64,000 bases of DNA from an uncultured Gammaproteobacteria bacterium (GCA_964512695.1 CAZEJU010000001.1:7803-71802), one strand, 5' to 3'. Positions 20,038-56,331 are shown, counted from the stretch's first letter. Notes: a model not told the origin generated them from the sequence alone. Made by a program: numbers and translations.

Positions 20038-20260
20038 TAATATTTAATTTCTATTTACCAAATACCATTTTCCATTTTGTTTCTTCAGATTTTTCCTTGA
20101 TGTATTAATTGAGGATGTACATATCCCGATTCCTATTAATGAAGCCAGTGCATTGGTTTGCCGATTTTTAGTACTATGCAATGGAAAATTGAAAAACGGA
20201 CAATGGGAAATTTTAATAGTTGTAGGCATAATAAGAATATGTTACAGTTACACAGGTTTT

Positions 20261-21430
20261 ATGATTTCACAACGTGTCGCAAATCTTACTCCCTCGCCTA
20301 CATTAACATTAGACGCAAAAGTAAAAACTTTACAAGCACAAGGACAAAGTGTTATTAACTTATGTGTAGGTGAACCTGATTTTGATACCCCACAGCACGT
20401 CCAAGATGCAGCTTTCCAAGCCATGCAAGACGGTTTCACTCATTACACTGTCACTGCAGGAATTCAAGAACTCAGGGAAGCAATCGTAGAAAAATTTAAA
20501 AAAGATAATACTATAACGTACAATCCTTCTGAAGTAATCGTAGGTATGGGTAGTAAACCACTACTGTACCTCGCTTTTTTATCTTTATTAAATAAAGATG
20601 ATGAGGTACTTATACCTACTCCCACATGGAACTCGTTCGTGGAACAAGTTAAATTGGTTGGGGGGAAACCAGTATTAGTACCTTTACAACCTCCTTTTAA
20701 ACTCCTAGCTGCTGATATTAAAGAGAAAATCACAAAGAAAACAAGAATGCTACTTGTCAATACACCTTCTAATCCTACAGGAGCAATGATAGATAGCATT
20801 GAGCTTGAAAAAATAGCCGAATTAGCAGTAGAAAATGATTTTTTTATTCTCGCAGATGAAATATATGAAAAAATTGTTTACACACAGCAGCATATTTCAA
20901 TCGCGTCACTATCTGCAGCTATTAAACAAAAGACTATTACTATTAACGGGTTCTCAAAAGCATACGCAATGACAGGATGGAGAATAGGCTATGCTGGAGG
21001 ACCTCAAGAGATTATTCAGGCAATGGTAGCTCTGCAAGGACAAATAACTTCAAACGTGGCTTCTTTTGTGCAGAGAGCAGGCATAGAAGCATTAAAAGGC
21101 GACCAGAATGATTTAATGAAAATGACGAAGGCATTTAGTGAACGGCGAAGGTTTGTTATTCAAACCTTAAAAAATATTCCTGGTATCACATTTTCCGAAC
21201 CAGAAGGGGCTTTTTATGTTTTTATATCAGTTGAAAAAAAATTAGGAAAAGTGTATAAGTCATCTTCAGAGTGGTGCGAAGCATTACTTGAAAAGCAAAG
21301 TGTGGCTGTAGTACCTGGAGAGGGATTCTTCCGCCCAGGCTATTTCAGACTAAGCTATGCTGCTTCGATGGAAGAGTTAAAGAGGGGAATAGAGGGAATA
21401 AAAAAGTTTATTTTGGATCAATATACATAG
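20261..21430 (+). CDS. PLP-dependent aminotransferase class I (aspartate aminotransferase-like)
   Basis: MISQRVANLTPSPTLTLDAKVKTLQAQGQSVINLCVGEPDFDTP.., NPSNPTG, SFSKAYAMTGWRIGY (PLP-Lys motif). Start moved to the ATG at 20261. Confidence 0.8.
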   Translation: MISQRVANLTPSPTLTLDAKVKTLQAQGQSVINLCVGEPDFDTPQHVQDAAFQAMQDGFTHYTVTAGIQELREAIVEKFKKDNTITYNPSEVIVGMGSKPLLYLAFLSLLNKDDEVLIPTPTWNSFVEQVKLVGGKPVLVPLQPPFKLLAADIKEKITKKTRMLLVNTPSNPTGAMIDSIELEKIAELAVENDFFILADEIYEKIVYTQQHISIASLSAAIKQKTITINGFSKAYAMTGWRIGYAGGPQEIIQAMVALQGQITSNVASFVQRAGIEALKGDQNDLMKMTKAFSERRRFVIQTLKNIPGITFSEPEGAFYVFISVEKKLGKVYKSSSEWCEALLEKQSVAVVPGEGFFRPGYFRLSYAASMEELKRGIEGIKKFILDQYT

Positions 21431-21554: not shown

Positions 21555-23063
21555 ATGGCGCGTAAAATACCAGCAACAATGGTCTCACAACATCCTGATA
21601 ATGCGAGTAAACCGTACTGGCATACGGAAGAATTTATTAGCACCCAACATGAAACATTTGAATGTTTCTTATCTTTCTCTGAACTTGGTGTCTCTGAATA
21701 TAAATGGGATTGGGAAGGAAAGCTCGTAGATGAGTCTATTATGGAACGGCTTTTTAGCCAGTATTATGAATTTTTTAAGACAAATCCACTAGGTTATAGC
21801 AAATTTCTCACATTCCGTCTTCCAAACCCAAAAGTAGAAACAGAATTCCGTATAGGGCGCGCTTTCATGGGTATTCTCAGTGCGGATATGTTAGCTCGTC
21901 AGCTTGGATTCTACAGTCCCTCCTTATTTGAAGTAATCTTACCAATGACAGAGTCAGCGCAAGAGATGATAGAAATTCAAGAAGCTTTTCGCGAAATGAG
22001 TGGATTAAAACATAAATTATATCGCATGGCAGATAAATCTCTTCGTCATATCGAATTGATTCCCTTATTTGAAGATGTACATACGATAATTAACTCTGCA
22101 AATATTCTCGAACAGTATATTAAACTTCACAAAAAGAAATTTAAATTTTTACCTTCATATATAAGGCCGTACATCGCTCGTTCTGATCCAGCATTAAACG
22201 CAGGAATTGTGCCTACGGTACTTGCAGCAAAAATCGCTCTTTCAAGATACAAAGCATTTTCAGAAAAAACTGGCATTCCTTTATATCCCGTTATAGGCTC
22301 TGCATCCTTACCGTTTCGCGGAGGGCTTACACCAGTAACTGTCGAAGCGTTTGCTAACGAATATAAAGGAGTCCGAACAGCTTTGCTCCAGAGCGCATTC
22401 CGATATGATTATGATAAAAATGTCGTTAAACAGGCAGTGGAACAGCTTGAAAAATTACTTCCTTCAAATAGTGCAATTTCAATACCCCAAAAAGACGAAA
22501 AAGTTATGATCGAGCTTATTAACTTATTCGAGGGATATTATAAACCTACTATAGAACAATTAGCAGATAAGATAAACGCAGTAGCCACATCTCTACCTCG
22601 CAGAAGAGAACGAGTGCAGCATGTGGGTTTATTCGGGTACTCAAGGGGTGTCGGAAAAGTAAAACTACCACGAGCCATAGGGTTTACCGCCGCTATGTAC
22701 TCACTGGGTATTCCTCCAGAAATAATAGGCACGGGACGAGGCATAAAAGAAGCAAAGGAACGCGGACTTCTGCCAGTACTCGAAAAGTATTATGTTAATC
22801 TACAAGCTGATCTCACTCGAGCAGGGAAATACGTTAATAAACCAGCAATTAAAAAACTCGCGAAAACTGATACGACATGGAATGATGTTTTAACAGATAT
22901 AACGGAAATCGAAAAATTCCTTAAGATAGCACTTGAACCTGAGACAGAAGAAGAGAAACAACATAAAACCATTACGGATGATATTACGAAGAAACTTGCT
23001 GCTGAGGAATCTATAGCAAAACTCATAGAACAAGCAGCAGTACTCCGAAAAAGTTTAGGATAG
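21555..23063 (+). CDS. Archaeal-type phosphoenolpyruvate carboxylase (PepcA family)
   Basis: N-terminus KIPATMVSQHPDN and a length of about 500 aa are characteristic of the short archaeal-type PEPC family. Recalled similarity only. Confidence 0.6.
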   Translation: MARKIPATMVSQHPDNASKPYWHTEEFISTQHETFECFLSFSELGVSEYKWDWEGKLVDESIMERLFSQYYEFFKTNPLGYSKFLTFRLPNPKVETEFRIGRAFMGILSADMLARQLGFYSPSLFEVILPMTESAQEMIEIQEAFREMSGLKHKLYRMADKSLRHIELIPLFEDVHTIINSANILEQYIKLHKKKFKFLPSYIRPYIARSDPALNAGIVPTVLAAKIALSRYKAFSEKTGIPLYPVIGSASLPFRGGLTPVTVEAFANEYKGVRTALLQSAFRYDYDKNVVKQAVEQLEKLLPSNSAISIPQKDEKVMIELINLFEGYYKPTIEQLADKINAVATSLPRRRERVQHVGLFGYSRGVGKVKLPRAIGFTAAMYSLGIPPEIIGTGRGIKEAKERGLLPVLEKYYVNLQADLTRAGKYVNKPAIKKLAKTDTTWNDVLTDITEIEKFLKIALEPETEEEKQHKTITDDITKKLAAEESIAKLIEQAAVLRKSLG

Positions 23064-23728: not shown

Positions 23729-23875
23729 TTGACAATAAGCAAAAAGTAGAGTATTATCGGATATAACGATATGCATTATATAAAAGTTGAAAACATGATG
23801 GCAATGATGATGACTTCCTAACGGAGGTGTATCACGTGCTGTTTGTGAACGACCTCCTTACTAGGAGGTTTTTTT
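23729..23875 (+). promoter_or_regulatory. Promoter plus Met-codon leader-peptide transcription attenuator
   Basis: TTGACA(23729)-17 nt-TATTAT(23752). Leader ORF 23771..23821 = MHYIKVENMMAMMMTS. GGAGGU (23823..28) can pair with ACCUCC (23852..57), which alternatively forms the terminator ACCUCCU-uacu-AGGAGGU + U6 (23852..23875). Confidence 0.7.
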
Positions 23876-24794: not shown

Positions 24795-25107
24795 TTGACA
24801 AGCTCAGGCTGATAAGGTAAAGTATGGAAAGAATCAAGAGTGATGGGGAGACCCCAGTCTGATCTTCCTTTTCGCCTTAGTAGATTTCTACTTCGGCTTA
24901 AAGAGCGATCTTACCGGGGCGGGAGTTTTGGCTTCATGATCCATCCGGCAACCCTTCGGTAAGTTCAAACAATGCTTGAACAACGAGCAGGGTGCCAAAC
25001 CCAACCCAAGAGATGTGCTACCGAGTACATCTTCGTAAAGGAGGATTTGATCCTGAGACAATCGAAGGATAAACTATGTATTACCTCTCTTTACGAGAGG
25101 TTTTTTT
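24795..25107 (+). promoter_or_regulatory. Promoter plus S-box (SAM-I)-like riboswitch with extra insert, antiterminator and terminator
   Basis: TTGACA(24795)-17-TAAAGT. S-box-like strings AUCAAGAG (24833), GGGAGUUUUGGCUUCAUGAUCCAUCCGGCAACC (24921..53), GGUGCCAAACCC (24991), AAGAGAUG (25008). UUUGGC (24927) is complementary to GCCAAA (24994), like the SAM-I pseudoknot. Terminator ACCUCUC-uuuac-GAGAGGU + U7 (25083..25107). GUAAAGGAGG (25035) can pair with CCUCUCUUUAC as an antiterminator. Confidence 0.5.
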
Positions 25108-25113
25108 ATTTAT

Positions 25114-26868
25114 ATGGCTAAAGAAGGTGAAATAAAAGGCACATATCAGTTTAGTATAGATGGCCCTCAGCTGACCAGTGACGATATACAGAGGAAGTTC
25201 CCTGGTGTCAAAAATAATGGTCATCTCGGAAAGACTGGTGTAGTACTACATGATACAGCAATTCCTATCGCAGCTATCCGACATCCTCGACTTATACCTA
25301 CGCGGTTAGATGGAATTATACCTGTGTTTGGTGGCCCCCAAACACACAGTAAAATAGAGCATATCCGTATCCGACCAGCTGGTGGCTCAGAAGCGAAAAG
25401 AATAGCAAAAGCAGTCCGTGGAACAACCCCAACACTCGGACCAGAAGCAGAAGCATTTGTACATAACAGAAGAACAGGCAGACTTGTACCTACATTTAAA
25501 GGAAAACAAATTGAAACACAAAAAGCACTGAGAGAAGATGCACTTGGACATACGGGATCGCTTGAAGAACACATCGTAGCATCTGCTAAATTTACAGTTT
25601 TTAGAGCTAATCAAGAGCGCAGACGAGGACGTATCGCAGTTGAAACAAGTGTTCCTATAACCTATGGTGAAGGTAAAGATGCTCGAGATAGTGAAGGTCT
25701 CGCAGGTAGTGAAAATCCATATATTGTGGCTATGACACATCTGTTCCCTGAAAATATGCTCCCTACAGAGAAGCTTGATCCACAAGTTGCAAGCGTTTTA
25801 AATCAATACGCTCTTCGCCATGGGTTTGCGACTATTTCTGATATGACCAGCGCTCTCGGTCTTAACCGCACCTGGCACATGGCTGCAAGCCATCTGAGTC
25901 TTGGTCTACCGCAGGAACAACAACCAGATGGGAAATATATTACTTCTACTGAGATCGCGATAGGAGTTATGAATGTATTTATGAGTGACCTTAATATTTC
26001 GCATATGTTTACTCATGGAACACCTATGCTAGGCGGACAATTAGTAGATGTTCCAGCACGAAATCGTCAATCAGAACATGTGGCCTCAAATCAACCGTTA
26101 CGGGATGTACGACTTGGTGCATTTAAGCATATGTTAGGCACTGCTTATCCTGGCCCGCTTATCGCGAATGAAGAAGATCTCTATGATCGCTGGAGAAAGA
26201 TTGTTATTCCAGGGAAAGCCGCGACTGTAGATCGAGCATCGGCAATTAGTATAGCACCAAATGGAGAAATCTATGCCTCAATGCATGCACGGGCTCGTCT
26301 TCGTGTGGGAGGTGATCCCACAAAACAAACTGTACGAGTCGAATCAGTAGGAGATAGCGCTACACCTTCACGCTACGACTTAATAGCGCGTGACGCGTAT
26401 CTAGTAATGTTATGGAACGGTGCTATGGAGGCAATGGCAAAAGGAAAAACCCCACAAGATTTCTGGGGGGGAAATTATCCAGCAATAACTGACTGGAAAA
26501 AGCAGCAGGAAGCGACATTAGGATTTTCTGTTAATGGACCAGCGAATAGGGAAGCACATGTGCTGATTGAACAAAACCTGGGGTTTTTACGTGATATGAA
26601 AGCTCTCCAACCTACATTAGGTACGTACATCGATTATGTAACAGCACGTATTCGTAATTTTAGTAGACCGACAAAAGCACACACACTCGATGAGTATACA
26701 ACAGATCCATCAGGTAGCATAAGCGAGGTAATTCGACGCATGAAAGAAACCGGATATAAAGATGATGAAATCGTGCGAGCTATTGACACACATCAAACTG
26801 CAGTATCACGAAGAGTTGTTCAAGTTCATGGAGATTTTAAAGCGCTTCTACAAGATGTACAAAAGTAA
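25114..26868 (+). CDS. GCS2 / glutamine-synthetase-fold carboxylate-amine ligase-like protein, paralogue A (584 aa)
   Basis: Shares family landmarks with the other paralogues: GRIAVETSV (G-x-E-x-E-type strand), AASHLSLGLPQ, MHARARLRVGGDPTKQTVRVESVGDSA (R-x-R...E...D, compare HWxxRxx...xExRxxD of GCS2/YbdK). Confidence 0.55.
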   Translation: MAKEGEIKGTYQFSIDGPQLTSDDIQRKFPGVKNNGHLGKTGVVLHDTAIPIAAIRHPRLIPTRLDGIIPVFGGPQTHSKIEHIRIRPAGGSEAKRIAKAVRGTTPTLGPEAEAFVHNRRTGRLVPTFKGKQIETQKALREDALGHTGSLEEHIVASAKFTVFRANQERRRGRIAVETSVPITYGEGKDARDSEGLAGSENPYIVAMTHLFPENMLPTEKLDPQVASVLNQYALRHGFATISDMTSALGLNRTWHMAASHLSLGLPQEQQPDGKYITSTEIAIGVMNVFMSDLNISHMFTHGTPMLGGQLVDVPARNRQSEHVASNQPLRDVRLGAFKHMLGTAYPGPLIANEEDLYDRWRKIVIPGKAATVDRASAISIAPNGEIYASMHARARLRVGGDPTKQTVRVESVGDSATPSRYDLIARDAYLVMLWNGAMEAMAKGKTPQDFWGGNYPAITDWKKQQEATLGFSVNGPANREAHVLIEQNLGFLRDMKALQPTLGTYIDYVTARIRNFSRPTKAHTLDEYTTDPSGSISEVIRRMKETGYKDDEIVRAIDTHQTAVSRRVVQVHGDFKALLQDVQK

Positions 26869-27021: not shown

Positions 27022-28503
27022 ATGTCCCGAATACACGAATTACCAAGTATCCATACACTCTCTTCTACTGATGCTCAAAGATATTGGGATAAGTTACATC
27101 CAATAAAAGTTGTATCTCATGAGAGACCCCTGCAATACGGACATCCAGTTGAAATTCCTCCTAAACTCGCAGGAACTATTGGCAGATCAGCAAATCTCAT
27201 GGAAGAAATTGCGATAGATAGCATTATGCAACAAGGGGCCACTACATGGCTTGGAAATAATGCGGCTTCTTTCGCAGGTGATAGTCTTAACATACAAGAA
27301 ATCAACCACCAGCTCGAAGGTAGGCTTCTTCAAGGCTATCGATTACCTATTAGTTACGATGGAATGATAACAGTCTTTCGTGGAAGACCACATTATACAG
27401 TAGTGGAAGCACAATCTCTAGTTGCTCATGGCCCATGGATTCGGTCTATGCTTCAAGCAGCAGATAAAGATCCAGATGATCCATCATCATGGCAAGGGAA
27501 AGAAAATCCTACCCTCGTAGTTCAACAAATGAAAGACAATTTCGCGAAGGGTGAAGTTATAACAGTATTAGATACCACTCCACTTTCAGGTCCATTTATT
27601 CATGAACAAGTGGGTCTAGCGAAAGCATTAGGAACATCGGGAAGCGTGCCTATTTCTGCGCTTGATATCCAATTTAATCCTGAAATAGGTTATTTTCATT
27701 ACGGTTATGCAGTTGATACTAGAGGCTACCCTATACCAAATGGAAACGGCTTTTTAAGAACATCCGACCGAATACCAATCCGGCATGTGTTAAGCCGTAT
27801 GACGCAACCTGATCTGGATCATTTATACAATCTGGTCCGCGGTAACCCCCAACAAAGTGAACTTATACTCAAGTTCTTACGAGATGAAAAGATTAATTGG
27901 ATCTGGCATCCAGCATGGCAGTCCCTCATCGATAAATCGAGATTACCATATATCTGTAAAAAACTGGAAGAAAGACAAGAAAACGTAACACGCAATCAAT
28001 TTGTTCCGATTTTCGTAGCCGGTGAAACTCCACCCCTAGGAACGTATGTGCGTAAACCCGTAAGCAGCGTCCAAGGTGAAGGAGTAACAATTGTGCAAGT
28101 TAATGGCGTACCTCAACAAGTCGAAGAAGGCACAGTATACCAAAAGTATTTTTACCCGTATCCGTTTTCCATTCCCTTAGACGCAGAAATAGCACGGCAA
28201 TTTCCTGTAACACCCCATGCTCCCAGAAATGTCGCGTCTGGCTTCCAGGAACATTTCGGTTGGGGACAAACCACAACGCCTGCTAGTCTAGAATTATGTT
28301 ATATGGTGCCACCTTGGTGTAAAGGAGAACTTACGGGATATTTTATAGGGAGAGTAGCACCCAGGTATACAGGACCAGATTCAAGAAACATAACCCAAAC
28401 AAACCTCTCAAAAGCGCAAGCTGCGATGTACGAATATATCCGAGATCAGGATCATTGGAAAACACCCTTCGGCTTTTCCCCTGTAACTCTTCAAAAGACT
28501 TAA
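27022..28503 (+). CDS. ATP-grasp-like ligase (glutathionylspermidine-synthase-like flavour), 493 aa
   Basis: IWHPAWQSLIDKSRLPYI (compare the W..l.nKa.l..L motif of GspS-type pre-ATP-grasp proteins) and YVRKPVSSVQGEGVTIV (K-P-x-x-x-x-x-G-x-G-V ATP-grasp strand). Own TTGAAT-18-TACAAT promoter-like signal at 26982..27011. Confidence 0.45.
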   Translation: MSRIHELPSIHTLSSTDAQRYWDKLHPIKVVSHERPLQYGHPVEIPPKLAGTIGRSANLMEEIAIDSIMQQGATTWLGNNAASFAGDSLNIQEINHQLEGRLLQGYRLPISYDGMITVFRGRPHYTVVEAQSLVAHGPWIRSMLQAADKDPDDPSSWQGKENPTLVVQQMKDNFAKGEVITVLDTTPLSGPFIHEQVGLAKALGTSGSVPISALDIQFNPEIGYFHYGYAVDTRGYPIPNGNGFLRTSDRIPIRHVLSRMTQPDLDHLYNLVRGNPQQSELILKFLRDEKINWIWHPAWQSLIDKSRLPYICKKLEERQENVTRNQFVPIFVAGETPPLGTYVRKPVSSVQGEGVTIVQVNGVPQQVEEGTVYQKYFYPYPFSIPLDAEIARQFPVTPHAPRNVASGFQEHFGWGQTTTPASLELCYMVPPWCKGELTGYFIGRVAPRYTGPDSRNITQTNLSKAQAAMYEYIRDQDHWKTPFGFSPVTLQKT

Positions 28504-28528
28504 GCACACATACTCTTAAGTTTAAATA

Positions 28529-28675
28529 TTGACAATTTATAATTGATCTGGTAAGATTATAAGACAAATATGCAACATACGTTTAATTCTATTATTGTCG
28601 TCCTTCTCGTTACCCATTAATTGGGCGGAGGACTCGTGTTAAAAAACGTACCCGCTCAAAGAAGCGGGTTTTTTT
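28529..28675 (+). promoter_or_regulatory. Promoter plus Ile/Val/Leu-codon leader-peptide attenuator
   Basis: TTGACA(28529)-17-TAAGAT. Leader ORF 28570..28620 = MQHTFNSIIVVLLVTH (7 consecutive I/V/L codons). UUGGGCGG (28621) pairs with CCGCUCAA (28652) as antiterminator, versus terminator ACCCGCU-caaaga-AGCGGGU + U7 (28650..28675). Confidence 0.75.
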
Positions 28676-28696
28676 ATGTTTTAAAAGGAGAAATAT

Positions 28697-30556
28697 ATGA
28701 GTTCACATAAAGAATATGCAGGGCAAGCTGCTCTCAAATCCTTAGCTGAAAGATATATTAGAAGGTATGGCTTAAAAGCTGATTTTAATCCCGAAGAGAC
28801 AGGTGGAGTAATTTTCGCTCAAGACGGTACACCACTAAGGCAAGTCCGTGCTCCTTTCTGGAGAGCAGAAAAAGGTGCAAAGGGAACAGGCAGAAAAGAT
28901 ATGCCTAGAGTTTACACTGCTACAAATCCTGACCCGGATAAACCTAACTCAGGATTAGAATTAGAATTCCAAGCTTTCCATGCCATGACAGGAGAAATGG
29001 AACCAGTCATGGATGCAGACCACCCAGTACATCAGGGGTTATTGGAACACAATCGAAAAGCAAAAAATGGACACACTGAAAATAATGGAAATGGACTTGG
29101 AAACGGAAATGGGGTTAATGGATATGTTTTTGTAGAAGACGGCGCTGACTGGGACCATGACTTCCCAACTGGACCTAAAGAAGTAGGATTTAGCCCAGAG
29201 CTAACACGTCATACTTTGGAGGAAAACTTTCCTCCGAATGTAGATTCCGGAACACGAAACAGAGAGACATTATATGGTATTAGCACAGTTGTACAATTAG
29301 CAGAAGCAAATAACACACTTATCTCTCCGTTCTCGACTATACCGCATCGAGATATTACACAAATTGATACGAATCAACATCCATATGTCCAACGCATAGC
29401 GTTCGAACACATGGGTCCCGAAAAAGTTAAACACTTTACAGGTACTTCACTGCAAATTCACGTAGAAATCAAGGATTTAGAGTCAGCTTTACACGCTGCA
29501 AACCGTTGGCAGCTAGTTACACCTATTATGTATGCGGGAACACTTTCAGCACCTTTTATCGCAGGAGAAATAACACCCGATTTACAAGAACGGTATGGTC
29601 AAGTTCCCGACGTGGTTGGCGATCCACTAAAAGAAAGCACATTTGATACTATGACACAAGGACCCCATGAATCATATAGATATTATGGTAGATTAATAGG
29701 ATCACCTTCTGGAGGTGCAATGAGACAGCCTCTACCTGAAACATCTGAAGAATTTTGGTCTGCGGCTAATAATCTTCTAAAATCAGGAGAAAGTCCTTCC
29801 GTGGGTAGAGTAGCAGGACACCATGCAGATTTTCGTATTCGCCCTGACTTGGGACCGTATGGCACAATCGAGTTAGCAGTATTAGATACTGCCGGTGCGC
29901 GCATTCCAAATATCGTAGCCATTCAAGAATTCTCCAGAGCTTTGGGTTGGAAGTTACAGAGACAAGCAGGTAATTGGGAACAAATTATGGAAGATCCTCG
30001 TTTTAAATCGATATTCGGGCAAGCACCTTCTAAGGAAACATTCGAGACTGTTCACTGGAATACTATAGAGGTAGCAAAACATGGAAATAAGGCAATGATT
30101 ACTGGTATGGACGGAGAACAGCATTCTATAGCAGAGTTATGGAGTAAGTTAGTGGAATATGTACAAGAACCTATTGAAGAAACCGGTTATACTGGTTTAC
30201 CGGAAGGTATTATCGAGGTATTAGATAAAGCTTATCAAGACCCATCAGAACTATTTGATGTTTATAAAGACGAAAAAGGAGTTACTTCTGTCAAAGGATT
30301 CTATGAAACCGGAGTCGGAACTATGAGCCAGTGGGCCAGACAACGTGCAGAAGAGTTGAAAGCAAGAGGCTTAGCAGAAAAAGAAGCCATTATCGATACT
30401 ACACTTAATGTAGGCAAAAGCTTTCATGAACATGTAAAGTCAATGACACCCAAAGATCTTAATACTTTATATGTAAGCGCTAACAAGGATGTGGATAAAT
30501 CACCCCAATACAGCGCTAATGGTCAGAATCCATCATACCAAACCACTGCGTCCTAA
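28697..30556 (+). CDS. GCS2-fold carboxylate-amine ligase-like protein, paralogue B (619 aa)
   Basis: SGLELEFQAF, GTSLQIHVEIKD, GHHADFRIRPDLGPYGTIELAVLDTA (close to the GCS2 HWDVRP...T(I/V)E(V/L)RV.D signature). AAAGGAG SD 6 nt upstream. Confidence 0.65.
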   Translation: MSSHKEYAGQAALKSLAERYIRRYGLKADFNPEETGGVIFAQDGTPLRQVRAPFWRAEKGAKGTGRKDMPRVYTATNPDPDKPNSGLELEFQAFHAMTGEMEPVMDADHPVHQGLLEHNRKAKNGHTENNGNGLGNGNGVNGYVFVEDGADWDHDFPTGPKEVGFSPELTRHTLEENFPPNVDSGTRNRETLYGISTVVQLAEANNTLISPFSTIPHRDITQIDTNQHPYVQRIAFEHMGPEKVKHFTGTSLQIHVEIKDLESALHAANRWQLVTPIMYAGTLSAPFIAGEITPDLQERYGQVPDVVGDPLKESTFDTMTQGPHESYRYYGRLIGSPSGGAMRQPLPETSEEFWSAANNLLKSGESPSVGRVAGHHADFRIRPDLGPYGTIELAVLDTAGARIPNIVAIQEFSRALGWKLQRQAGNWEQIMEDPRFKSIFGQAPSKETFETVHWNTIEVAKHGNKAMITGMDGEQHSIAELWSKLVEYVQEPIEETGYTGLPEGIIEVLDKAYQDPSELFDVYKDEKGVTSVKGFYETGVGTMSQWARQRAEELKARGLAEKEAIIDTTLNVGKSFHEHVKSMTPKDLNTLYVSANKDVDKSPQYSANGQNPSYQTTAS

Positions 30557-30590: not shown

Positions 30591-31676
30591 ATGATTCAAC
30601 AAGAAAGGCTTCTAAAAACATTCTTCGATCTTGTTTCAATCGATAGTCCTACAGGTGAAGAAGAACGCATTCGTAACGAACTCTCAAATCGTTTGAAAAA
30701 ACTTGGCGCTGAAACAGTGGAAAAAGATACCTATGGTAACCTCATAGCGAAATTCCATGGTGAAGGTGAACCGCTCATGATTAACTGCCATATGGACACT
30801 GTAGAGCCCGGTAGAGGCATAGTACCAATTATGAAAGGTGATAGAGTAGAAACCGACGGGAAGACAATTCTAGCGGGTGATGCAAAGGCAGGTTTAGCGA
30901 TTATCCTCGAAGCCTTAACTTCACTAAAAGAAGAAAATAAAAAACATGTACCTATCGAAATCGTCTTTACTGTAGAGGAGGAAACTGGACTTTATGGAGC
31001 TGTTAACCTCGACTATTCAAAAGTCTCCGCAAAAAAAGGATTTGTTTTTGATGGTTCAAAAGATCCTTGTACCTTAACCACATCAGCACCGGGATATTAT
31101 AGAGTCGATGTTACAATCATAGGAAGAGCGGCTCATGCGGGAGCCGAACCTGAAAAAGGTATTTCAGCTATTAAAATCGCTTCTGATATTATTACGAAGC
31201 TCGAGGTAGGCAGAATTGATGAAGAAACTACGGCAAACGTCGGTATTATAGAAGGCGGAAGCGCCCGGAATGCAGTACCAGAAAAAGCACATTTTAAGGC
31301 AGAAATTCGAAGTAGAAAGCTAGAAAAGCTTGAAAAACATGCAGGTCATTTCCAAGAAGTTTTTGAGGAAGCGATGAAGAAACATCCTGAAGCGAAAATA
31401 GAGATAGACATGCATTTAGAATTTAATCCATATATTTTCGATGAAAACCATCATGTTATTCAGCTTGCGAGTAAAGCGTTAAGCGAACTAGGACAAACAC
31501 CGAAACTTGCACCTTCGAATGGAGGATCCGATGTCAATATTTTTATTTCACACGATATAGAAACAGTGGCTGTAGGAATTGGCGATTATAATGCTCATAC
31601 AACCCGCGAATACGTCGTCATATCTGAAATAGTGTTAGGAGCTAGACTCTGCGAAAAACTCCTTGAGGCGAAGTAA
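30591..31676 (+). CDS. M20-family metallopeptidase (peptidase T / tripeptidase-like)
   Basis: SPTGEE, CHMDTVEPG, LAGDAKAGLA, EEETGLYGA, RAAHAGAEPEKGISA: M20 metal-ligand motifs. 34 nt after paralogue B, so likely the same operon. Confidence 0.75.
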   Translation: MIQQERLLKTFFDLVSIDSPTGEEERIRNELSNRLKKLGAETVEKDTYGNLIAKFHGEGEPLMINCHMDTVEPGRGIVPIMKGDRVETDGKTILAGDAKAGLAIILEALTSLKEENKKHVPIEIVFTVEEETGLYGAVNLDYSKVSAKKGFVFDGSKDPCTLTTSAPGYYRVDVTIIGRAAHAGAEPEKGISAIKIASDIITKLEVGRIDEETTANVGIIEGGSARNAVPEKAHFKAEIRSRKLEKLEKHAGHFQEVFEEAMKKHPEAKIEIDMHLEFNPYIFDENHHVIQLASKALSELGQTPKLAPSNGGSDVNIFISHDIETVAVGIGDYNAHTTREYVVISEIVLGARLCEKLLEAK

Positions 31677-31759: not shown

Positions 31760-32107
31760 TTGACACGTCATTAACCTCATGGTAGAATTACTATAACATA
31801 CGAATAACAGCGTTGATCCAGTATGGATGGGACTGGGGATTCTCCTTCATTAAAGTTACGCAAGGAGAGCGCTGGGTCTAATCAACCCCGGAGGCGAAAC
31901 CGTAAAAAGATCAGCAACATGTGTCATAGCTGCAGATAAGCACTGATTAAAAGCTGATTCTCGCTGATATAGAGCATGTCATGAATGAGAAGTCCTCCCA
32001 CGCCAAAGCTCCGGAGGATAAAACAAGGTGGCACCGTCCTTAAATAAACGTGGGACCCTTGTAAATAACTACAAAGTAATTTTGTGGTTGTTTACAAGGG
32101 TTTTTTT
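31760..32107 (+). promoter_or_regulatory. Promoter plus T-box-like leader (antiterminator bulge UGGC; specifier not resolved)
   Basis: TTGACA(31760)-17-TAGAAT. ACAAGG-UGGCACC-GUCC..GGAC-CCUUGU (32023..32062) is a T-box-type antiterminator with a 7-nt bulge. Its 3' strand is shared with a 14-bp terminator CCCUUGUAAAUAAC/GUUGUUUACAAGGG + U7 (32056..32107). Confidence 0.6.
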
Positions 32108-33278: not shown

Positions 33279-33422
33279 TTGACATTACACATGGGCTATC
33301 CTATAATCATTTATATGATACGACAAGCAGTAAATTTCTTTTTCTTTTTTACCCCACTCGCGGGGAGGTAATTTCGTGATCACACGAAATACTCTATACC
33401 CCGCATAAGGCGGGGTTTTTTT
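33279..33422 (+). promoter_or_regulatory. Consensus promoter plus Phe-codon leader-peptide attenuator
   Basis: TTGACA(33279)-17-TATAAT(33302). Leader ORF 33315..33371 = MIRQAVNFFFFFTPLAGR, with its ATG only 7 nt after the -10 (leaderless). CCCC/GGGG (33352/33362) 1:2 hairpin. GCGGGG (33360) can pair with CCCCGC (33399), versus terminator CCCCGC-auaag-GCGGGG + U7 (33399..33422). Confidence 0.8.
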
Positions 33423-33435
33423 ATGGAGGAATTCT

Positions 33436-35136
33436 ATGGCAATGACTGAACAAGACATACTAAAAGGTACAATGAACGGCCGAGTTGATTCAGGTTTAAA
33501 GGCAACTGATAACACAGCAGTACCTTTAGGTGAACAATCTCATGGCGGCATAGTCCGAAATACCGATGGACTATGGTGGCTACCTGCCTCACCACATCGC
33601 GGAAGGGGTTTCGAATGGCAAGACTCAAAGGATCCTAGATATAACGCAACACATTTAAGTGAAGTTGGCTACCACCCTGAACCTCTAGAACCACAGAGAA
33701 CCGTAGAAGTATTAGCTGAACATTTACAAGAAAAAGTTGAAGGAAGAATTCCGGAAACAGAAACCCATGGAGTTGAAGTTGAAGGGACTACCTATGATCG
33801 AGAAGGCAATCTCTTAGCAATTCCTGTCGATCAGAAAACAAATCCCGAATTATTAGCTTCTACACATGAAGAAGCCACAAAACTGGAAAACGGACAGTAC
33901 CCGAGAAAACCATTTGAAATAGCTCGAGCAGTAGCCAGTGCAACCCAGCGGGGTATCGCAATCGCTGAAAATCATAGCGGAATACTTGTCCTCACAGAAG
34001 TACCAGAAGGTGGAACATTTCATGATGCTGAAAACAGTACATTTCCATATATAGTACGTCAACAAGGAAGAATTCGAAGACACGCATTAGCACACCTTGA
34101 TGAGATACCTGAAGAAACATGGGCTCTCTATCGACGTTACGGCGTAGATATTCGAGAACTACTGGAATCTAATAGACCGCTCAATTGGCCTACTCATGGA
34201 TTGCATCATCATGCCGGTGCGCCACAAATAGAAGGATTAGTCGACCCGAGAGCCGCACTGGTTATGGGAAAAATGCGTCAAACACTTTTTGCAAAATTAC
34301 TGCAATACCCAGCATTTAATAGCAGTAGATTATATGAAAAAGAAACTGATCTCCGCGGAGTCCGATCTGTCGCAAAACACGCGCTTGCTACAACAGTTAA
34401 TAATGATTTACCTGATAGTGCTGAAGAGCTAATGTGGGATGTGCAACGGGCAATGAGAGAGGGAGAAATCGCTACGCCTTCACGATATCCTTATAAAGGC
34501 CAACACGATGTCGTTCGATTTAGGATGGATGGAAAACATAAAACTGTCGAGTCTATTAAAGATCCTATGACACCTGACCTATTAACAGCGCTTCATCTCG
34601 TGTTCGGCAATCAACTCCTGGATACCATCGGCCAGCAAGCTCTCGTACAAGTAGGTGGAGATGAAAGCAAAGTTATGGGTTATTTACAATCTATACATCC
34701 TGAGCTTTTTGCCACATTGCCTTCATTAGGTCCTGAGTCATCACATAGTGCAGATATGCAGTTTAATAAAGCAGGGTATCTAGGAACATTCCGCGGGAAA
34801 ACTTATGCTGAGCTTATAAGAGATGCACGTGCTGTCGTGGAAGGGGTAGGCAAACATTATACAGCACTTGAGACACAAGCTAAAATTGTAAATCACGTAC
34901 TAGGATACCAAACAGATATTCCTCATCCACAGACTGATCTAGCAACATTTATGGGAATAAAAAATGGAGTTTACCAACCAAATAGTATGAGAGCAGGAAT
35001 TCTAACGGATTATAAAACGGGTATTCCTACAAATGAACTGTTAGTTGTCCAGGCTGAAGCAACGAAATTACAAGCTCAAGCTTTAGCACAAGTGAGAGAT
35101 GATAAAGATCTTCTCGAAGTGTATGGATTACAGTAA
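33436..35136 (+). CDS. GCS2-fold carboxylate-amine ligase-like protein, paralogue C (566 aa)
   Basis: HGVEVEGTTY, THGLHHHAGAP, GQHDVVRFRMDGKHKTVESIKDPM. GGAGG SD 6 nt upstream. Confidence 0.55.
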   Translation: MAMTEQDILKGTMNGRVDSGLKATDNTAVPLGEQSHGGIVRNTDGLWWLPASPHRGRGFEWQDSKDPRYNATHLSEVGYHPEPLEPQRTVEVLAEHLQEKVEGRIPETETHGVEVEGTTYDREGNLLAIPVDQKTNPELLASTHEEATKLENGQYPRKPFEIARAVASATQRGIAIAENHSGILVLTEVPEGGTFHDAENSTFPYIVRQQGRIRRHALAHLDEIPEETWALYRRYGVDIRELLESNRPLNWPTHGLHHHAGAPQIEGLVDPRAALVMGKMRQTLFAKLLQYPAFNSSRLYEKETDLRGVRSVAKHALATTVNNDLPDSAEELMWDVQRAMREGEIATPSRYPYKGQHDVVRFRMDGKHKTVESIKDPMTPDLLTALHLVFGNQLLDTIGQQALVQVGGDESKVMGYLQSIHPELFATLPSLGPESSHSADMQFNKAGYLGTFRGKTYAELIRDARAVVEGVGKHYTALETQAKIVNHVLGYQTDIPHPQTDLATFMGIKNGVYQPNSMRAGILTDYKTGIPTNELLVVQAEATKLQAQALAQVRDDKDLLEVYGLQ

Positions 35137-38346: not shown

Positions 38347-38492
38347 TTGACGTCCAAATAGATATAACTCTATAATACAAAGTGTTCTATATGAATATCA
38401 TGAATAACAATGGAGCAGTAAAGAAGAACCTCTCGTAAGAGGGGTCTTTCTGTTGTCTGCACAATAGTACCCCTTACAGAAGGGGTTTTTTT
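38347..38492 (+). promoter_or_regulatory. Promoter plus Asn-codon leader-peptide attenuator
   Basis: TTGACG(38347)-18-TATAAT(38371). Leader ORF 38391..38438 = MNIMNNNGAVKKNLS (5 Asn in 15 aa). CCUCU/AGAGG hairpin over the stop codon. GAGGGG (38439) can pair with CCCCUU (38470), versus terminator CCCCUU-acag-AAGGGG + U7 (38470..38492). Confidence 0.65.
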
Positions 38493-38615: not shown

Positions 38616-39899
38616 ATGAAAGAAGGACTAAAAGTATTATCACACTCATCTATAGAGGAATATCTATTCGATACTGATGTCGAAGACCGATATTATATTC
38701 CGTGGCGTGCAGCCGCAGAAGCAGCAGCAAGAATCGAACTAGGACAACAAGTTTTGACAATCCTTCCAAAACGTGAAGCTTTTAACGAATACCTCACCCT
38801 TTTACAAATGAAATTACTGGGAGGAAGAAGTATTCCAACGCTGTTTACACCTGATGAAGATTATCTTATGGATACTGATATTAAAAAATATCTTATGGAT
38901 ACTCTTCGTGGCAGATTTAACAGAAGTACCACTATTCATCCCTATCAAGCAACACCTGAATTTTATGATTGGGCGGGGGAGTTAGAACAGAAAGGCGTTA
39001 AAATTTACGCAGATAGAAAACGCAAAGACTTACGTGACTGGTGGGGACATAAAGGAGCATATCATCGATGGATAGATGATCTCGATACTCCCACTCAATT
39101 TGAAGGATTACATTTACCAATACCTCGAGGATACGTGGCTCAAAACCATGGAGAATTACTTGTAGCGAAAAAACTTCTACCAACTGACACTGTTGTGGCA
39201 AAACCAATTTTCGGAGCTGGTGGATTTCAAATAGAGTTCTTAGACGACGATAATATCGATACATATGAATGGCCTACCGACCCCACAACGGAAAAACCCA
39301 TGCCAGTTGCTGTACAAGAAAGACTAAGAATTGGTCGAGATGAATTCGGCGAACGTGTTTTTTCCTACCAGTTTGAGGGCCCACAACCAATGGGACGATT
39401 AACACGACAAATTATGGATCAGGAAACTGGGAAAGTCTGGAGTGGGAATAGAGTACCAGCAGATGTTACACCTGAGTTTGAACGAAGAGCAAAGGATGTA
39501 GTTCATACTTTAGTCATGAAAACAAAACCAAAAGGAGACGGGGGAGTCGATATAGCAGATGTAGATGGAGAACCAGTAATCATCGAAGTAAACGGAGGAA
39601 GGCCAACTGGCGCACATATGCCGAAACGATTTCAACAAGCCTTCGCGCCTGAAGCTCCACATTTCGTATTTCAGAAAGTAGAACCAAACGGATATTCACC
39701 ATTCGATATTTGGGATAGACTCGAAGGAGGAAACTTGCCTCGCACGAATGAAACTCTAGTATTTCAGCGTGAAAGACAACGCGGGGTTTTTCCATTAGTT
39801 TGGTTACCGAACTCTTGGGGAATGCTTGCAAGCTTCGGAGGATCATTCGAAGAAGCAAATAATCAGTTACTCGCAGCTCGTGATAGAATAGGCGTATGA
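38616..39899 (+). CDS. ATP-grasp-like ligase (427 aa)
   Basis: VVAKPIFGAGGFQIEFL, ..GGVDIADVDGEPVIIEVNGGRPTG.. (ATP-grasp C-terminal E-x-N region). AGGAGG SD. Confidence 0.5.
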   Translation: MKEGLKVLSHSSIEEYLFDTDVEDRYYIPWRAAAEAAARIELGQQVLTILPKREAFNEYLTLLQMKLLGGRSIPTLFTPDEDYLMDTDIKKYLMDTLRGRFNRSTTIHPYQATPEFYDWAGELEQKGVKIYADRKRKDLRDWWGHKGAYHRWIDDLDTPTQFEGLHLPIPRGYVAQNHGELLVAKKLLPTDTVVAKPIFGAGGFQIEFLDDDNIDTYEWPTDPTTEKPMPVAVQERLRIGRDEFGERVFSYQFEGPQPMGRLTRQIMDQETGKVWSGNRVPADVTPEFERRAKDVVHTLVMKTKPKGDGGVDIADVDGEPVIIEVNGGRPTGAHMPKRFQQAFAPEAPHFVFQKVEPNGYSPFDIWDRLEGGNLPRTNETLVFQRERQRGVFPLVWLPNSWGMLASFGGSFEEANNQLLAARDRIGV

Positions 39900-40966
39900 C
39901 TGAGAAAAGGGTAGTACAAATATTTTTCGATTTAGTAAAAATTGACAGCCCTTCTGGACATGAAGAGAACGTTTTAGAGTATATAGAAGCATATTGCAAA
40001 AAACTCTCACTAAATACACAGAGGGATTCTTATGGAAACCTCATCGTTAAAAAAGAAGGAGTAGGTGAACCACTACTTCTCTGTTCACATGCCGATACAG
40101 TAGAACCAGGGAAAAATATTCAACCACGAATAGAGAACGGAATTATAAAAAGCGATGGTACGACGATACTTGGTGCTGATAATAAATCGTCTATTGCAGC
40201 GATTCTCGAGGCTGTGAAACAATTAGTTGAAGAAAAAAAACACCATAGGCCTCTAGAGCTTGTGTTTACAAAATCTGAAGAAGTTGCTAGCTGGGGAGCA
40301 GTATATCTGGACTACAAACAACTTCAAGCAAAAGAAGGATATACGATAGATAACGCAAATCCTGTAGGAACAATTGTCTACGCGTCTCCTTTTTACTATC
40401 GTTTCGATATTACAGTATTCGGTAAAGATGCCCATGCTTCAAGACCGCATGAAGGAATTCATGCTTTAAAAATCGCTGCAAGCGCCATTCATAAAATAAA
40501 ACTTGGAAAAATTGATACAAATACACTTGCCAATATCGGCATGATCCAATCAGGCCATGTACGCAACACAATTCCAGGTTCAGTAGTGCTTATGGGAGAA
40601 GTACGAAGCTATTCCGATGAGAAAGCTCAAAGGTACTTAAACAAAATTATTGATACATTTAGAAAAACTGCAGAAAAAACGGGAGGATCTATAACGTACG
40701 AAACGCTGAAAGAAAATGCTGGGTATATATATAAAACAAATGATCCCTTTGTAAAAAAAACGATGCAGATTATGAAAAAGATTGGAGTAGAAACGAACTT
40801 AATTAAAACTCTGGGCTGTGCCGATGCAAATGTGATCCAAGAGCATGGAATTAAAATGCTCGACCTGGGCGACGGCTCACGCAGAGCGCATACACTAAAG
40901 GAGTCAATACCGGTAGCACAGTTACAAAGAGTCGTTGAGCTAGTATTAGCTCTTGCTGGAGCATAA
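39896..40966 (+). CDS. M20-family metallopeptidase (second copy, peptidase T-like)
   Basis: SPSGHE, SHADTVEPG, LGADNKSSIA, KDAHASRPHEGIHA. ATGA start/stop overlap with the upstream ATP-grasp gene. Paralogue of 30591..31676. Confidence 0.75.
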   Translation: MTEKRVVQIFFDLVKIDSPSGHEENVLEYIEAYCKKLSLNTQRDSYGNLIVKKEGVGEPLLLCSHADTVEPGKNIQPRIENGIIKSDGTTILGADNKSSIAAILEAVKQLVEEKKHHRPLELVFTKSEEVASWGAVYLDYKQLQAKEGYTIDNANPVGTIVYASPFYYRFDITVFGKDAHASRPHEGIHALKIAASAIHKIKLGKIDTNTLANIGMIQSGHVRNTIPGSVVLMGEVRSYSDEKAQRYLNKIIDTFRKTAEKTGGSITYETLKENAGYIYKTNDPFVKKTMQIMKKIGVETNLIKTLGCADANVIQEHGIKMLDLGDGSRRAHTLKESIPVAQLQRVVELVLALAGA

Positions 40967-41085: not shown

Positions 41086-41204
41086 ATGCGATATACTTTC
41101 TTCAACATGAGTAAATCAGTTTTCGGAACTACCACTACAACAACCCTTTCCTAAGGGAGGTTGGCGTGGTATTATTTAACAACCTCCTTAATAGGAGGTT
41201 TTTT
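41086..41204 (+). promoter_or_regulatory. Thr-codon leader-peptide attenuator
   Basis: AGGGAG SD, then leader ORF 41086..41154 = MRYTFFNMSKSVFGTTTTTTLS (6 consecutive Thr codons). CCCUU/AAGGG 1:2 hairpin. AAGGGAGGUUG (41153) pairs with CAACCUCCUU (41180), versus terminator CCUCCU-uaau-AGGAGG + U6 (41183..41204). The terminator is nearly identical to that of the Met leader. Confidence 0.8.
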
Positions 41205-55810: not shown

Positions 55811-56331
55811 TTGACGTACTATAGGGAATATAGTATCATTATTTAACAATTTATAAAGGCTATGACGAAGTCAAAGTAGTTTTCGCAGAGTGACACCAGA
55901 GAGAAGACGTCGCTGCAAGATCTTCCGTATCTTCGAAAATGAATTACGCTTCTGAGCTGTATGCCGAATCCGTTAACCGATGGATAGGCAGAACCGGGTT
56001 CGCACCGTGATAGCGAAAGAATGTGTCGCAGAAGAAGTGGAGCATTCGAAAATAAGCGTTTATCGTATTACTTCGAATCCCTTCATAAGGGATTTTTTAT
56101 TGCTAAGATAAGCGAAACCGAGGTGGTACCACGGAGAAAAATTAAAAGGTAAAAGGTAAAAATTGTATAAGGAAAGATAGTAGTAATTTTACTTTGGACT
56201 TTTGACTTTACACTTTTAACTTTCTTGTTCCGTCCTTGAGAATCATTATTGTTCGAGTGAAGTGAGAGTTATTTTTTACACATAAACTTCTCATTTTGTT
56301 CGAAGAATAGTATTTCTGGGACGGTTTTTTT
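55811..56331 (+). promoter_or_regulatory. Promoter plus T-box leader, probable Tyr (UAC) specifier, with unusually large inserts
   Basis: TTGACG(55811)-17-TATCAT. Stem I base GCUAUGACGAAG/CUUCUGAGC with AGUA...GAA flank and UAC+G at 55945..48. AGAGA box. F-box CCGUUA (55970). T-box GAGGUGGUACCACGG (56119..34). CGAGG-UGGUACC-ACGG pairs with CCGU-CCUUG (56230..38). Terminator arm CCGUCC/GGGACGG + U7 (56230..56331). Confidence 0.6.

Follow-up and report, generated by a model that had tools for sequence, protein, structure and literature searches.

The window analyzed here is a 64,000-nucleotide stretch of DNA from an uncultured Gammaproteobacteria bacterium (GCA_964512695.1 CAZEJU010000001.1:7803-71802), and the element in question is a short leader, at 28529-28696, that precedes the gene for a 619-amino-acid (aa) protein and has the makings of a transcription attenuator responsive to branched-chain amino acids. 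The leader begins with a plus-strand sigma-70-type promoter (28529-28557; score, 10 of 12), in which a -35 hexamer, TTGACA (28529-34), and a 17-nucleotide (nt) spacer are followed by an extended -10 element, TGgTAAGAT (28549-57), with its TG at 28549-50 and the -10 hexamer, TAAGAT, at 28552-28557. Exactly 12 nt separate this hexamer from the ATG (28570) of a 16-codon upstream open reading frame (uORF), MQHTFNSIIVVLLVTH, which runs on the plus strand from 28570 to 28620 and ends with a UAA at 28618-20. The uORF lacks a Shine-Dalgarno sequence and, with a predicted 5' untranslated region of about 4 to 6 nt, is near-leaderless. Its codons 8 to 14 (28591-28611, plus strand) read AUU AUU GUC GUC CUU CUC GUU and thus form an uninterrupted run of Ile-Ile-Val-Val-Leu-Leu-Val. 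An intrinsic terminator, ACCCGCU-CAAAGA-AGCGGGU plus a U7 tract, occupies 28650-28675 and lies 21 nt upstream of the ATG (28697) of the 619-aa gene, which has its own plus-strand Shine-Dalgarno sequence, AAGGAG (28683-88). An earlier note on this DNA, made by a model from the sequence alone, had described a promoter, a leader with seven consecutive branched-chain codons among 16 residues, a -10 hexamer some 12 nt from the ATG, a pairing strand next to the stop codon (region 2, below), and a terminator; all of these lie where it placed them.

What connects the short reading frame to the terminator? The leader RNA can be divided into four regions, all on the plus strand, with alternative partners. 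Region 1 (28597-28616), which overlaps the Val and Leu codons, is the 5' strand of an anti-antiterminator hairpin in minimum free energy (MFE) folds. Region 2, UUGGGCGGAGGAC (28621-28633), starts about +1 to +3 nt from the stop codon and can pair with either region 1 or region 3. Region 3 (28650-28659) consists of the 5' arm of the terminator, ACCCGCU, and the loop bases CAA, while region 4 (28663-28675) consists of the 3' arm, AGCGGGU, and the U7 tract, the two arms making a 7-bp GC-rich stem. In the MFE folds of the window, the 1:2 hairpin joins GUCCUUC (28600-06) to GGAGGAC (28627-33) and CCCA to UGGG. The antiterminator joins UUGGGCGG (28621-28628) to CCGCUCAA (28652-28659) through 8 pairs, including one G-U pair, which bears out the complementarity that the earlier note had seen between the stop-adjacent strand and the terminator 5' arm. 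RNAduplex assigns this duplex -14.6 kcal/mol (P = 0.017 versus shuffles), and when the 5' part of the leader is masked in folding, as by a stalled ribosome, the pairing forms at -14.5 kcal/mol; it is thus stronger than the terminator hairpin, at about -11 kcal/mol. The antiterminator (2:3) and the terminator (3:4) are mutually exclusive. Left unmasked, the leader folds as two hairpins, region 1:2 and the terminator. Taken by itself, the window locus is only modestly above chance, with a fold z score of -2.2 and 6 of 200 shuffles folding equally well.

The element belongs to no catalogued RNA family. No Rfam family matched it at its gathering threshold or at E ≤ 10, and across the whole window only tRNAs reached a gathering score. 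Weak matches did turn up for P9 and for the Trp, Thr, and Leu leaders, but it is the terminator that accounts for them; for the curated leader families (Leu_leader RF00512, Thr_leader RF00506, and Trp_leader RF00513), the best scores were 15.7 to 17.2 bits versus thresholds of 41 to 55, with E values of 3 to 5, and two of the best leader-family matches fall on the wrong strand. A T-box was likewise not found by Rfam at E ≤ 10 in 27500-29500, and the leader is only about 110 nt long.

The first gene behind the terminator (28697-30556, plus strand; Shine-Dalgarno sequence from 28683) encodes the 619-aa protein, for which the predicted fold is that of the YbdK/GCS2 carboxylate-amine ligases. Its AlphaFold (AF2) model is of good quality (mean predicted local distance difference test score [pLDDT], 85; predicted template modeling score [pTM], 0.87), and the top Foldseek matches were YbdK structures 1r8g and 1tt4 (E values of 1e-12 to 1e-11; template modeling [TM] score of 0.80 on the target), followed by glutamate-cysteine ligases, the Pup ligase PafA, the depupylase Dop, and glutamine synthetases. 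By sequence, the relationship is far fainter. No Pfam family matched at E ≤ 0.001, PF04107 was not among the matches listed up to an E value of 1, sequence searches of the PDB with the family returned nothing, and TIGR02050 gave 26 bits (E = 4.5e-6), below its cutoff of 176. A precomputed PF04107 match does exist for 6 of 12 homologues. The family is very rare: a search of 5.8 billion clustered proteins gave 13 homologues at E ≤ 0.001. Ligase activity should not be taken for granted, as the hydrolase Dop shares the fold. The second gene (30591-31676, plus strand) encodes a PepT-like M20 peptidase, recognized by Pfam M20 and M20_dimer and by TIGR01883 (297 bits versus a cutoff of 274). The two genes are read as one operon because the gap between them is 35 nt and holds no terminator. 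Both of the functional calls in the earlier note, a GCS2-fold protein and an M20 peptidase, are therefore borne out, the former by the model and Foldseek and the latter by the domain matches. An M20 gene also lies downstream of the ligase-like gene in loci L008, L011, L013, L014, and L027 of other genomes.

Is the leader a peculiarity of one contig? Orthologous loci were gathered by exact look-up of four homologues, from species-representative genomes, and from Joint Genome Institute (JGI) metagenomes. The species-representative genomes with the locus are those of "Candidatus Woesebacteria," Roizmanbacteria, and Daviesbacteria, a Microgenomates-group metagenome-assembled genome (MAG), and one MAG labelled Gammaproteobacteria. 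In all, 15 leaders of one design were found in 13 orthologous loci, mostly in Microgenomates-group MAGs, a recurrence that is far beyond chance. Every orthologous locus with sufficient upstream sequence has a short reading frame rich in isoleucine, leucine, and valine (I/L/V), the frame ends at or within a strand able to pair with the terminator 5' arm, and an intrinsic terminator stands between the uORF and the regulated gene in all loci. The earlier note had proposed a comparison of orthologous leaders, and the outcome is positive: both the I/L/V run and the alternative pairings recur. In most first-in-line leaders, the -10 hexamer ends 6 to 12 nt before the ATG, and the uORFs are therefore leaderless or nearly so; the 12-nt spacing in the window is a conserved property rather than an oddity. 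The gap between the U tract and the start codon of the gene is 5 to 28 nt across loci, which leaves no space for a further promoter, so that the gene would be transcribed solely by read-through.

The encoded peptides are 16 to 32 residues long and conserve an amino acid class but not a sequence. They are, besides MQHTFNSIIVVLLVTH in the window, MTSKASQNIFVLLITP (L014), MTSFKLKSPAQRSFSVVGIFVLLITP (L013), MKNNTILSILVLILIVLA (L011), MQSKVYSNIFVLLFIAR (L003), MKIRSLSVLFVLLLTPAKAE (L002), MVHKSLSVLFIQLITPKRAE and MTESVLNLVLVIIILTLYIAG (first and second leaders of L004), MNSFGFSLIITQLVLLTEAGA and MNQTKYKLELIIVVLILIFRSGG (first and second leaders of L005), MKSLSLTTKRAMLRAGSQALLTVVITILLLGA (L001), MRNMCLVIVSILLFKEGV (L015), MRNMELIIVSVLLFKGEV (L016), MKINSLIVVSFFLLIEG (L020), and MNKNFSLLVMFVLIIGLI (L021). 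These peptides could not be aligned beyond the part constrained by RNA pairing and do not show the conservation expected of a small protein or of a ribosomally synthesized and posttranslationally modified peptide. The most conserved bases of the leaders are the RNA strands GUCCUCC and GGCGGAGGAC. Several loci vary the arrangement. Two tandem I/L/V attenuators precede a single ligase-like gene in L004 (5718-5946) and L005 (5671-5975), and the latter has a third small open reading frame between its two leaders. In L008, L009, and L012, the ligase-like gene overlaps the preceding gene. On account of this overlap the three loci were taken to lack a leader, a reading rejected for L008, where the leader lies one gene further upstream: MKQIDQKFILILLITR and a terminator precede a 486-aa gene that overlaps the ligase-like gene. 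That this 486-aa gene might be the counterpart of the 493-aa gene upstream of the window leader was also rejected, as the two have no BLASTP similarity. Comparable leaders also stand before the genes of more distant family members (L006, L024, and L027) and, in L029, before a different gene.

Statistics over the 15 leaders bear on both the peptide and the RNA. At the level of the peptide, the mean I/L/V fraction is 0.40, versus 0.275 ± 0.026 in shuffled ORF bodies and a maximum of 0.36 in 2,000 shuffles. Pooled, the peptides contain 19.6% Leu, 12.9% Ile, and 11.5% Val, or 44% for the three together, a composition reached by no shuffle. The frames are open in 15 of 15 leaders (mean in shuffles, 5.7). 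In the last 12 codons of the 15 leaders, U stands at codon position 2 in 115 of 180 cases and at position 1 in 22 of 180, a codon-like periodicity that would not be expected of an RNA strand that is merely rich in U.

At the level of the RNA, variable spacers throw the arms out of register when the 15 leaders are aligned with MAFFT, and for this reason RNAalifold predicted no pairs. Pairing was therefore assessed without alignment, by duplex energies, shuffles, and permutations. Each of the 15 leaders has a predicted antiterminator duplex, formed by the stop-codon zone and the terminator 5' arm together with the loop or flank next to it, with energies of -11 to -22 kcal/mol (each P ≤ 0.04 versus shuffles; mean z score, -3.8); in most leaders, the terminator is no more stable than this duplex. 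Region 2 starts between -13 and +8 nt from the stop codon in every one of the 15. The two partners also vary together. Lineages with a CCCGCC/GGCGGG terminator have a GGCGG-type region 2, and those with a CCUCUC/GAGAGG terminator have a region 2 of the GUG(G/U)GAGAGG type. The pairing extends into the terminator loops, namely, CAA in the window, ACAC in L021, AACAC in L001, and CCA in L020, and into 5' flanks, namely, UCAGA in L015 and AGCA and UUUUAU in L005; loop and flank bases that pair with region 2 are not constrained by the terminator itself. When terminators were reassigned among the leaders, none of 20,000 permutations matched the observed mean energy, and cognate pairs averaged -15.3 kcal/mol versus -11.4 for noncognate ones, pairs drawn across lineages being weaker by about 4 kcal/mol. 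Pairing of region 1 with region 2 appears in the MFE folds of the window and most loci.

Taken together, the arrangement quite probably represents a transcription attenuator of the ribosome-mediated, leader-peptide type, through which the cell would gauge its supply of charged tRNA-Ile, tRNA-Val, and tRNA-Leu, and it is most likely the scarcity of Ile, Val, or Leu that turns on the ligase-peptidase operon. The ilv-leader type of architecture that the earlier note had proposed is thus supported by recurrence, co-variation, and codon bias in 13 loci. How might the switch work? Transcription would begin a few bases before the AUG at 28570, and a ribosome would load at once on the near-leaderless uORF. 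With ample Ile, Val, and Leu, the ribosome would proceed to the UAA at 28618-20 and cover region 2 (28621-33), or depart and let regions 1 and 2 re-pair; in either case the hairpin at 28650-28669 and its U7 tract would form, and transcription would end at about 28675. A ribosome protects roughly 12 to 15 nt downstream of the A-site codon, and the occlusion of region 2 by a terminating ribosome depends on a footprint assumed to be of that size. When any of these amino acids is scarce, the ribosome would stall within 28591-28608, with one of the codons from Ile8 to Leu13 in the A site, and occupy region 1 while leaving region 2 free. UUGGGCGG could then pair with CCGCUCAA, the terminator would be blocked, and the polymerase would enter the 619-aa-plus-M20 operon. 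Should no ribosome translate the uORF, regions 1 and 2 would pair and the terminator would form. Transcripts arriving from the upstream gene, in which the uORF would be internal and without a Shine-Dalgarno sequence, would default to termination as well, and the element would thereby insulate the two units. What the data show is the anatomy of the leader, its alternative pairings with their conservation and co-variation, and its codon bias; that the uORF is translated, that ribosomes stall on it, which way the response runs, and that the operon has a role in branched-chain supply are what we infer.

Several points weigh against this attenuation model. Pairing of regions 1 and 2, taken alone, was weak in shuffle tests (P values of 0.04 to 0.37 in a partial run). 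Lacking a Shine-Dalgarno sequence, the uORF would depend for its translation on near-leaderless initiation in the window organism. Since GUCCUYC must pair with GGAGGAC, some of the hydrophobic bias is imposed by the RNA. The I/L/V runs also contain Phe, Thr, and Ser codons, so that the sequence does not single out the amino acid or acids sensed, and a ribosome halted at the last Val codon would itself begin to cover region 2. No connection of the regulated enzymes with Ile, Val, or Leu is known, and for a ligase to be induced by starvation for its presumed substrate is counterintuitive.

The strongest argument that the I/L/V run consists of regulatory codons comes from sibling leaders. The window holds four divergent paralogs of the GCS2/YbdK fold within 18 kb (25114-26868, 28697-30556, 33436-35136, and 41323-43107), each with a leader of its own, and since the leaders nearby carry runs of Phe, Met, and Thr, the I/L/V run would be one more set of regulatory codons rather than a membrane peptide. 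The clearest sibling lies upstream of a 566-aa gene (33436-35136), where a leader at 33279-33425 encodes MIRQAVNFFFFFTPLAGR (33315-33371). Its consensus promoter, TTGACA-17-TATAAT, ends 7 nt before the ATG, so that this uORF should be truly leaderless, and its terminator is CCCCGC-ATAA-GGCGGGG plus U7. Phe-run leaders precede the 566-aa homologues in 8 of 8 loci (the window, L003, L007, L013, L014, L015, L016, and L022), with MKITFFRFFFFAFNPENAG and MSKKLISFFFFAFNPTKAG as examples from other loci, and the 566-aa homologue is the commonest neighbor of the ligase-like gene in other genomes. The 566-aa and 619-aa families are divergent paralogs (hhalign probability, 98.2%; E = 5.5e-14 over 392 columns), and the 566-aa protein has an AF2 model of pLDDT 91 and a Foldseek match to YbdK (E = 1e-8). 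Word-indexed searches with it returned only itself; an exhaustive HMMER search found 42 cluster representatives of its family among 1.84 billion.

The remaining siblings extend the list of amino acids. A Thr leader, MRYTFFNMSKSVFGTTTTTTLS (41086-41204), lies upstream of a 594-aa paralog (41323-43107; hhalign, 98.0% and E = 1.5e-13), which is followed by the threonyl-tRNA synthetase gene, thrS (43198-44937); its antiterminator, AAGGGAGGUUGG with ACAACCUCCUUA, reaches -17 kcal/mol (P = 0.002). A Met leader, MHYIKVENMMAMMMTS (frame at 23771-23821 within 23729-23875), stands before the ATG (23887) of a gene for a 265-aa protein with the C-terminal domain of S-adenosylmethionine (SAM) hydroxide adenosyltransferases, SAM_HAT_C (PF20257, 2.3e-9). 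The start listed for this gene, GTG 23827, is probably wrong, as it would overlap the terminator. If the protein releases methionine from SAM, the logic of a Met leader is transparent. A possible Asn-rich leader, MNIMNNNGAVKKNLS (38347-38492), has a promoter, an antiterminator, and a terminator and precedes genes for an ATP-grasp_3 protein and a second M20 peptidase (38616-39899 and 39896-40966); it is a weaker case because its codon run is short. The fourth paralog, of 584 aa (25114-26868; hhalign, 95.8% and E = 7.5e-9), has a leader of another kind (24795-25107; about 280 nt), with a promoter, TTGACA-17-TAAAGT, and a terminator, CCUCUC-UUUAC-GAGAGG plus U7, immediately before the gene. Neither a uORF with an amino acid run nor an Rfam match was found there, and it is a candidate riboswitch or tRNA-sensing leader of an unfamiliar type.

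Could the same features arise in other ways? The short frame might be a gene in its own right, encoding a small hydrophobic membrane peptide between a promoter and a terminator of its own, and the operon might be expressed through leakage of that terminator or from another promoter. The peptide does look like a short transmembrane segment, and promoter, frame, and terminator together would make a complete small transcription unit, but 16 residues are too few to span a membrane, only the class of the amino acids is conserved, and the Phe, Met, and Thr runs of the siblings are not membrane-like. The stop codon, moreover, always falls at the antiterminator strand, which co-varies with the terminator, and the 5 to 28 nt between the U tract and the gene have no space for another promoter; an independent peptide gene is highly improbable. 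Chance sequence in front of a terminator that serves only the upstream 493-aa gene is scarcely credible. Its attractions are an A tract before and a U tract after the hairpin, as in a bidirectional terminator, and promoter-like sites that are no commoner in the scanned region than in shuffles; yet the leader persists at loci that have an unrelated or divergent upstream gene or none at all (for example, L011, with a divergent neighbor, and L013 and L014), and the statistics of the 15 leaders exclude chance.

Another alternative is RNA-based sensing without translation, in which a protein, a small molecule, or a tRNA would bind the leader and the frame would be incidental to a pyrimidine-rich strand. 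The two strands that top the conservation are RNA strands, and T-box-like leaders occur nearby. This explanation is nonetheless very unlikely, given that U recurs at codon position 2 with a strong three-base period, and given an ATG at a fixed short distance from the -10 hexamer in most loci, frames open in 15 of 15 leaders versus 5.7 expected, and a stop codon whose position is conserved relative to region 2. Nor is there an Rfam match or, within about 110 nt, a conserved ligand pocket. Finally, the leader might sense not branched-chain supply but the overall state of translation or a compound that targets the ribosome. Resistance genes such as erm and cat are likewise regulated by short hydrophobic leader peptides, and a mixture of Ile, Leu, Val, and Phe is not specific for one amino acid. 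The leaders, however, share no conserved arrest motif, the regulated genes are enzymes of a metabolic type, and the clean Phe or Thr runs before paralogs, with the Met run before a SAM-hydrolase-like gene, fit amino-acid-specific sensing. The chance that such an arrest leader is at work is accordingly a very slim one, and attenuation by a ribosome reading I/L/V codons remains the preferred account.

Further leaders and neighboring genes deserve mention. Outside the window, a Phe leader, MTITRNGFFFFFTS (L001, 213-323), an I/L/V leader, MTIISLILVNFVLFIEG (L007, 3427-3557), a Met leader, MTHNMKSAYLNMMNMMAMPQKRGGLFR (L023, 1260-1389), and a Leu leader, MKNVTKGVLYLLNLLLLKENFGRPF (L023, 2900-3025), precede four further genes for which Pfam returned nothing. 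Leader-peptide attenuation thus seems, from such putative leaders, to be pervasive in these genomes. Genes of the Peptidase_C26 family (gamma-glutamyl hydrolase, glutamine amidotransferase-like) follow members of the 566-like family in L024 (4848-5576) and L028 (4524-5402), which hints that the products of the 566-like enzymes are gamma-glutamyl amides. Within the window, the leader upstream of a DUF3182 gene (31760-32107; about 300 nt) has a conserved block, GGAGGCGAAACCGUA (31890-31904), and a T-box-like antiterminator, ACAAGG-UGGCACC-GUCC...GGAC-CCUUGU (32023-32062), that overlaps a 20-bp terminator. The Rfam T-box model did not match this leader at E ≤ 10. Both blocks are kept in L020 (3357-3672), where the inner helix is GUUC/GAAC, and the real start of the DUF3182 gene is probably ATG 32109, the listed GTG (32028) lying within the leader. 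A fifth gene (56332-57711) matches Pfam GCS2. Before it, a sub-threshold T-box match lies at 55853-56072 (58.2 bits versus a gathering score of 93; E = 3.8e-12), followed by a canonical T-box sequence, GAGGUGGUACCACGG (56120-56134), and by a terminator just before the gene; the region 55853-56330 may be a divergent or composite T-box. Just upstream of the attenuator cluster are genes for a class I/II aminotransferase (20153-21430) and an archaeal-type phosphoenolpyruvate carboxylase (21555-23063; TIGR02751, 8.5e-147).

What would such a battery of leaders be for? The operon controlled here is not biosynthetic; its products are a PepT-like M20 peptidase and a member of a very rare GCS2-fold family without an assigned function, and among the siblings it is the Met leader before the SAM_HAT_C protein that would fit a logic of supply. 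To judge by the sibling leaders, the paralogs may each be dedicated to particular amino acids, and different amino-acid-specific leaders on paralogs offer a direct and cheap hypothesis on the substrate of each enzyme. We tentatively propose that the leaders are substrate-specificity labels of the GCS2-fold enzymes of about 560 to 620 aa (I/L/V for the 619-aa, Phe for the 566-aa, and Thr for the 594-aa protein, with T-box-like leaders for others), and that these enzymes, together with M20 or C26 hydrolases, ATP-grasp ligases, and the SAM hydrolase, could form a starvation-induced system of amino acid salvage or capture, although the odds are somewhat against so broad a scheme. The window appears to be of a Microgenomates type, judging only by the relatives of its genes. 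Microgenomates-type bacteria (candidate phyla radiation) are thought to lack amino acid biosynthesis; the leaders also suggest that these bacteria, with their reduced genomes, sense the shortage of single amino acids and respond with dedicated enzymes, which bears on how they acquire amino acids. In the paper library searched, no paper linked attenuators, leader peptides, or T-boxes to candidate-phyla-radiation or Microgenomates bacteria, and leader-peptide attenuation in Microgenomates-type genomes appears to be previously undescribed, as do its use on a nonbiosynthetic operon of this rare family and the presence of different amino-acid-specific leaders on the paralogs.

How does the element compare with known systems? 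Among the closest is ilvL, which precedes ilvGMEDA in Escherichia coli and Salmonella, acts as a multivalent attenuator for Ile, Val, and Leu, and has 32 codons. Both have a short uORF with a mixed Ile/Val/Leu run, mutually exclusive 1:2, 2:3, and 3:4 hairpins, and an intrinsic terminator just before the first gene, and for both, a shortage of any one of the three charged tRNAs is predicted to cause read-through. The window leader, in contrast, has no sequence similarity to ilvL and no Rfam match, has 16 codons rather than 32, is near-leaderless and without a Shine-Dalgarno sequence, and controls a GCS2-fold protein and an M20 peptidase rather than ilv biosynthetic enzymes; leaders of its type occur in Microgenomates-type genomes. 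The Phe leader of the window has its own parallel in the pheA (pheL) and pheST leaders of E. coli, in which Phe runs within some 15 to 20 codons are followed by a terminator. It too joins a Phe run in a short leader to a terminator, but the gene that it would regulate is a GCS2-fold paralog rather than one for Phe biosynthesis or charging. With T-boxes, some of which seem to have relatives before other genes of the cluster, the window leader shares amino-acid-specific antitermination when a charged tRNA is scarce; it lacks Stem I, the specifier loop, and the T-box sequence, and it would read charging by way of a translating ribosome.

Leaderless leader peptides are themselves on record. In Deinococcus deserti, 14 of them were inferred from mapped transcription starts and predicted to be attenuators of aminoacyl-tRNA synthetase and amino acid biosynthesis genes (PMC4007540). 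There, as in the window, the start codon of the uORF lies at or beside the 5' end of the transcript, the window's start being predicted from sequence; the phylum and the regulated genes are different. Leucine-rich attenuation of ilv-leu in Staphylococcus aureus (PMC5794164) and uORF attenuation of ilvBNC in Corynebacterium (PMC10272879, PMC11857589) offer the same combination of leader-peptide attenuation, Leu/Ile/Val codons, and a three-hairpin model; those leaders regulate branched-chain biosynthesis, while that of the window would regulate a GCS2-fold family. The mechanism, then, would be classical ribosome-mediated attenuation; what is new is the family of leader sequences, the lineage in which it occurs, and the enzymes that it would regulate.

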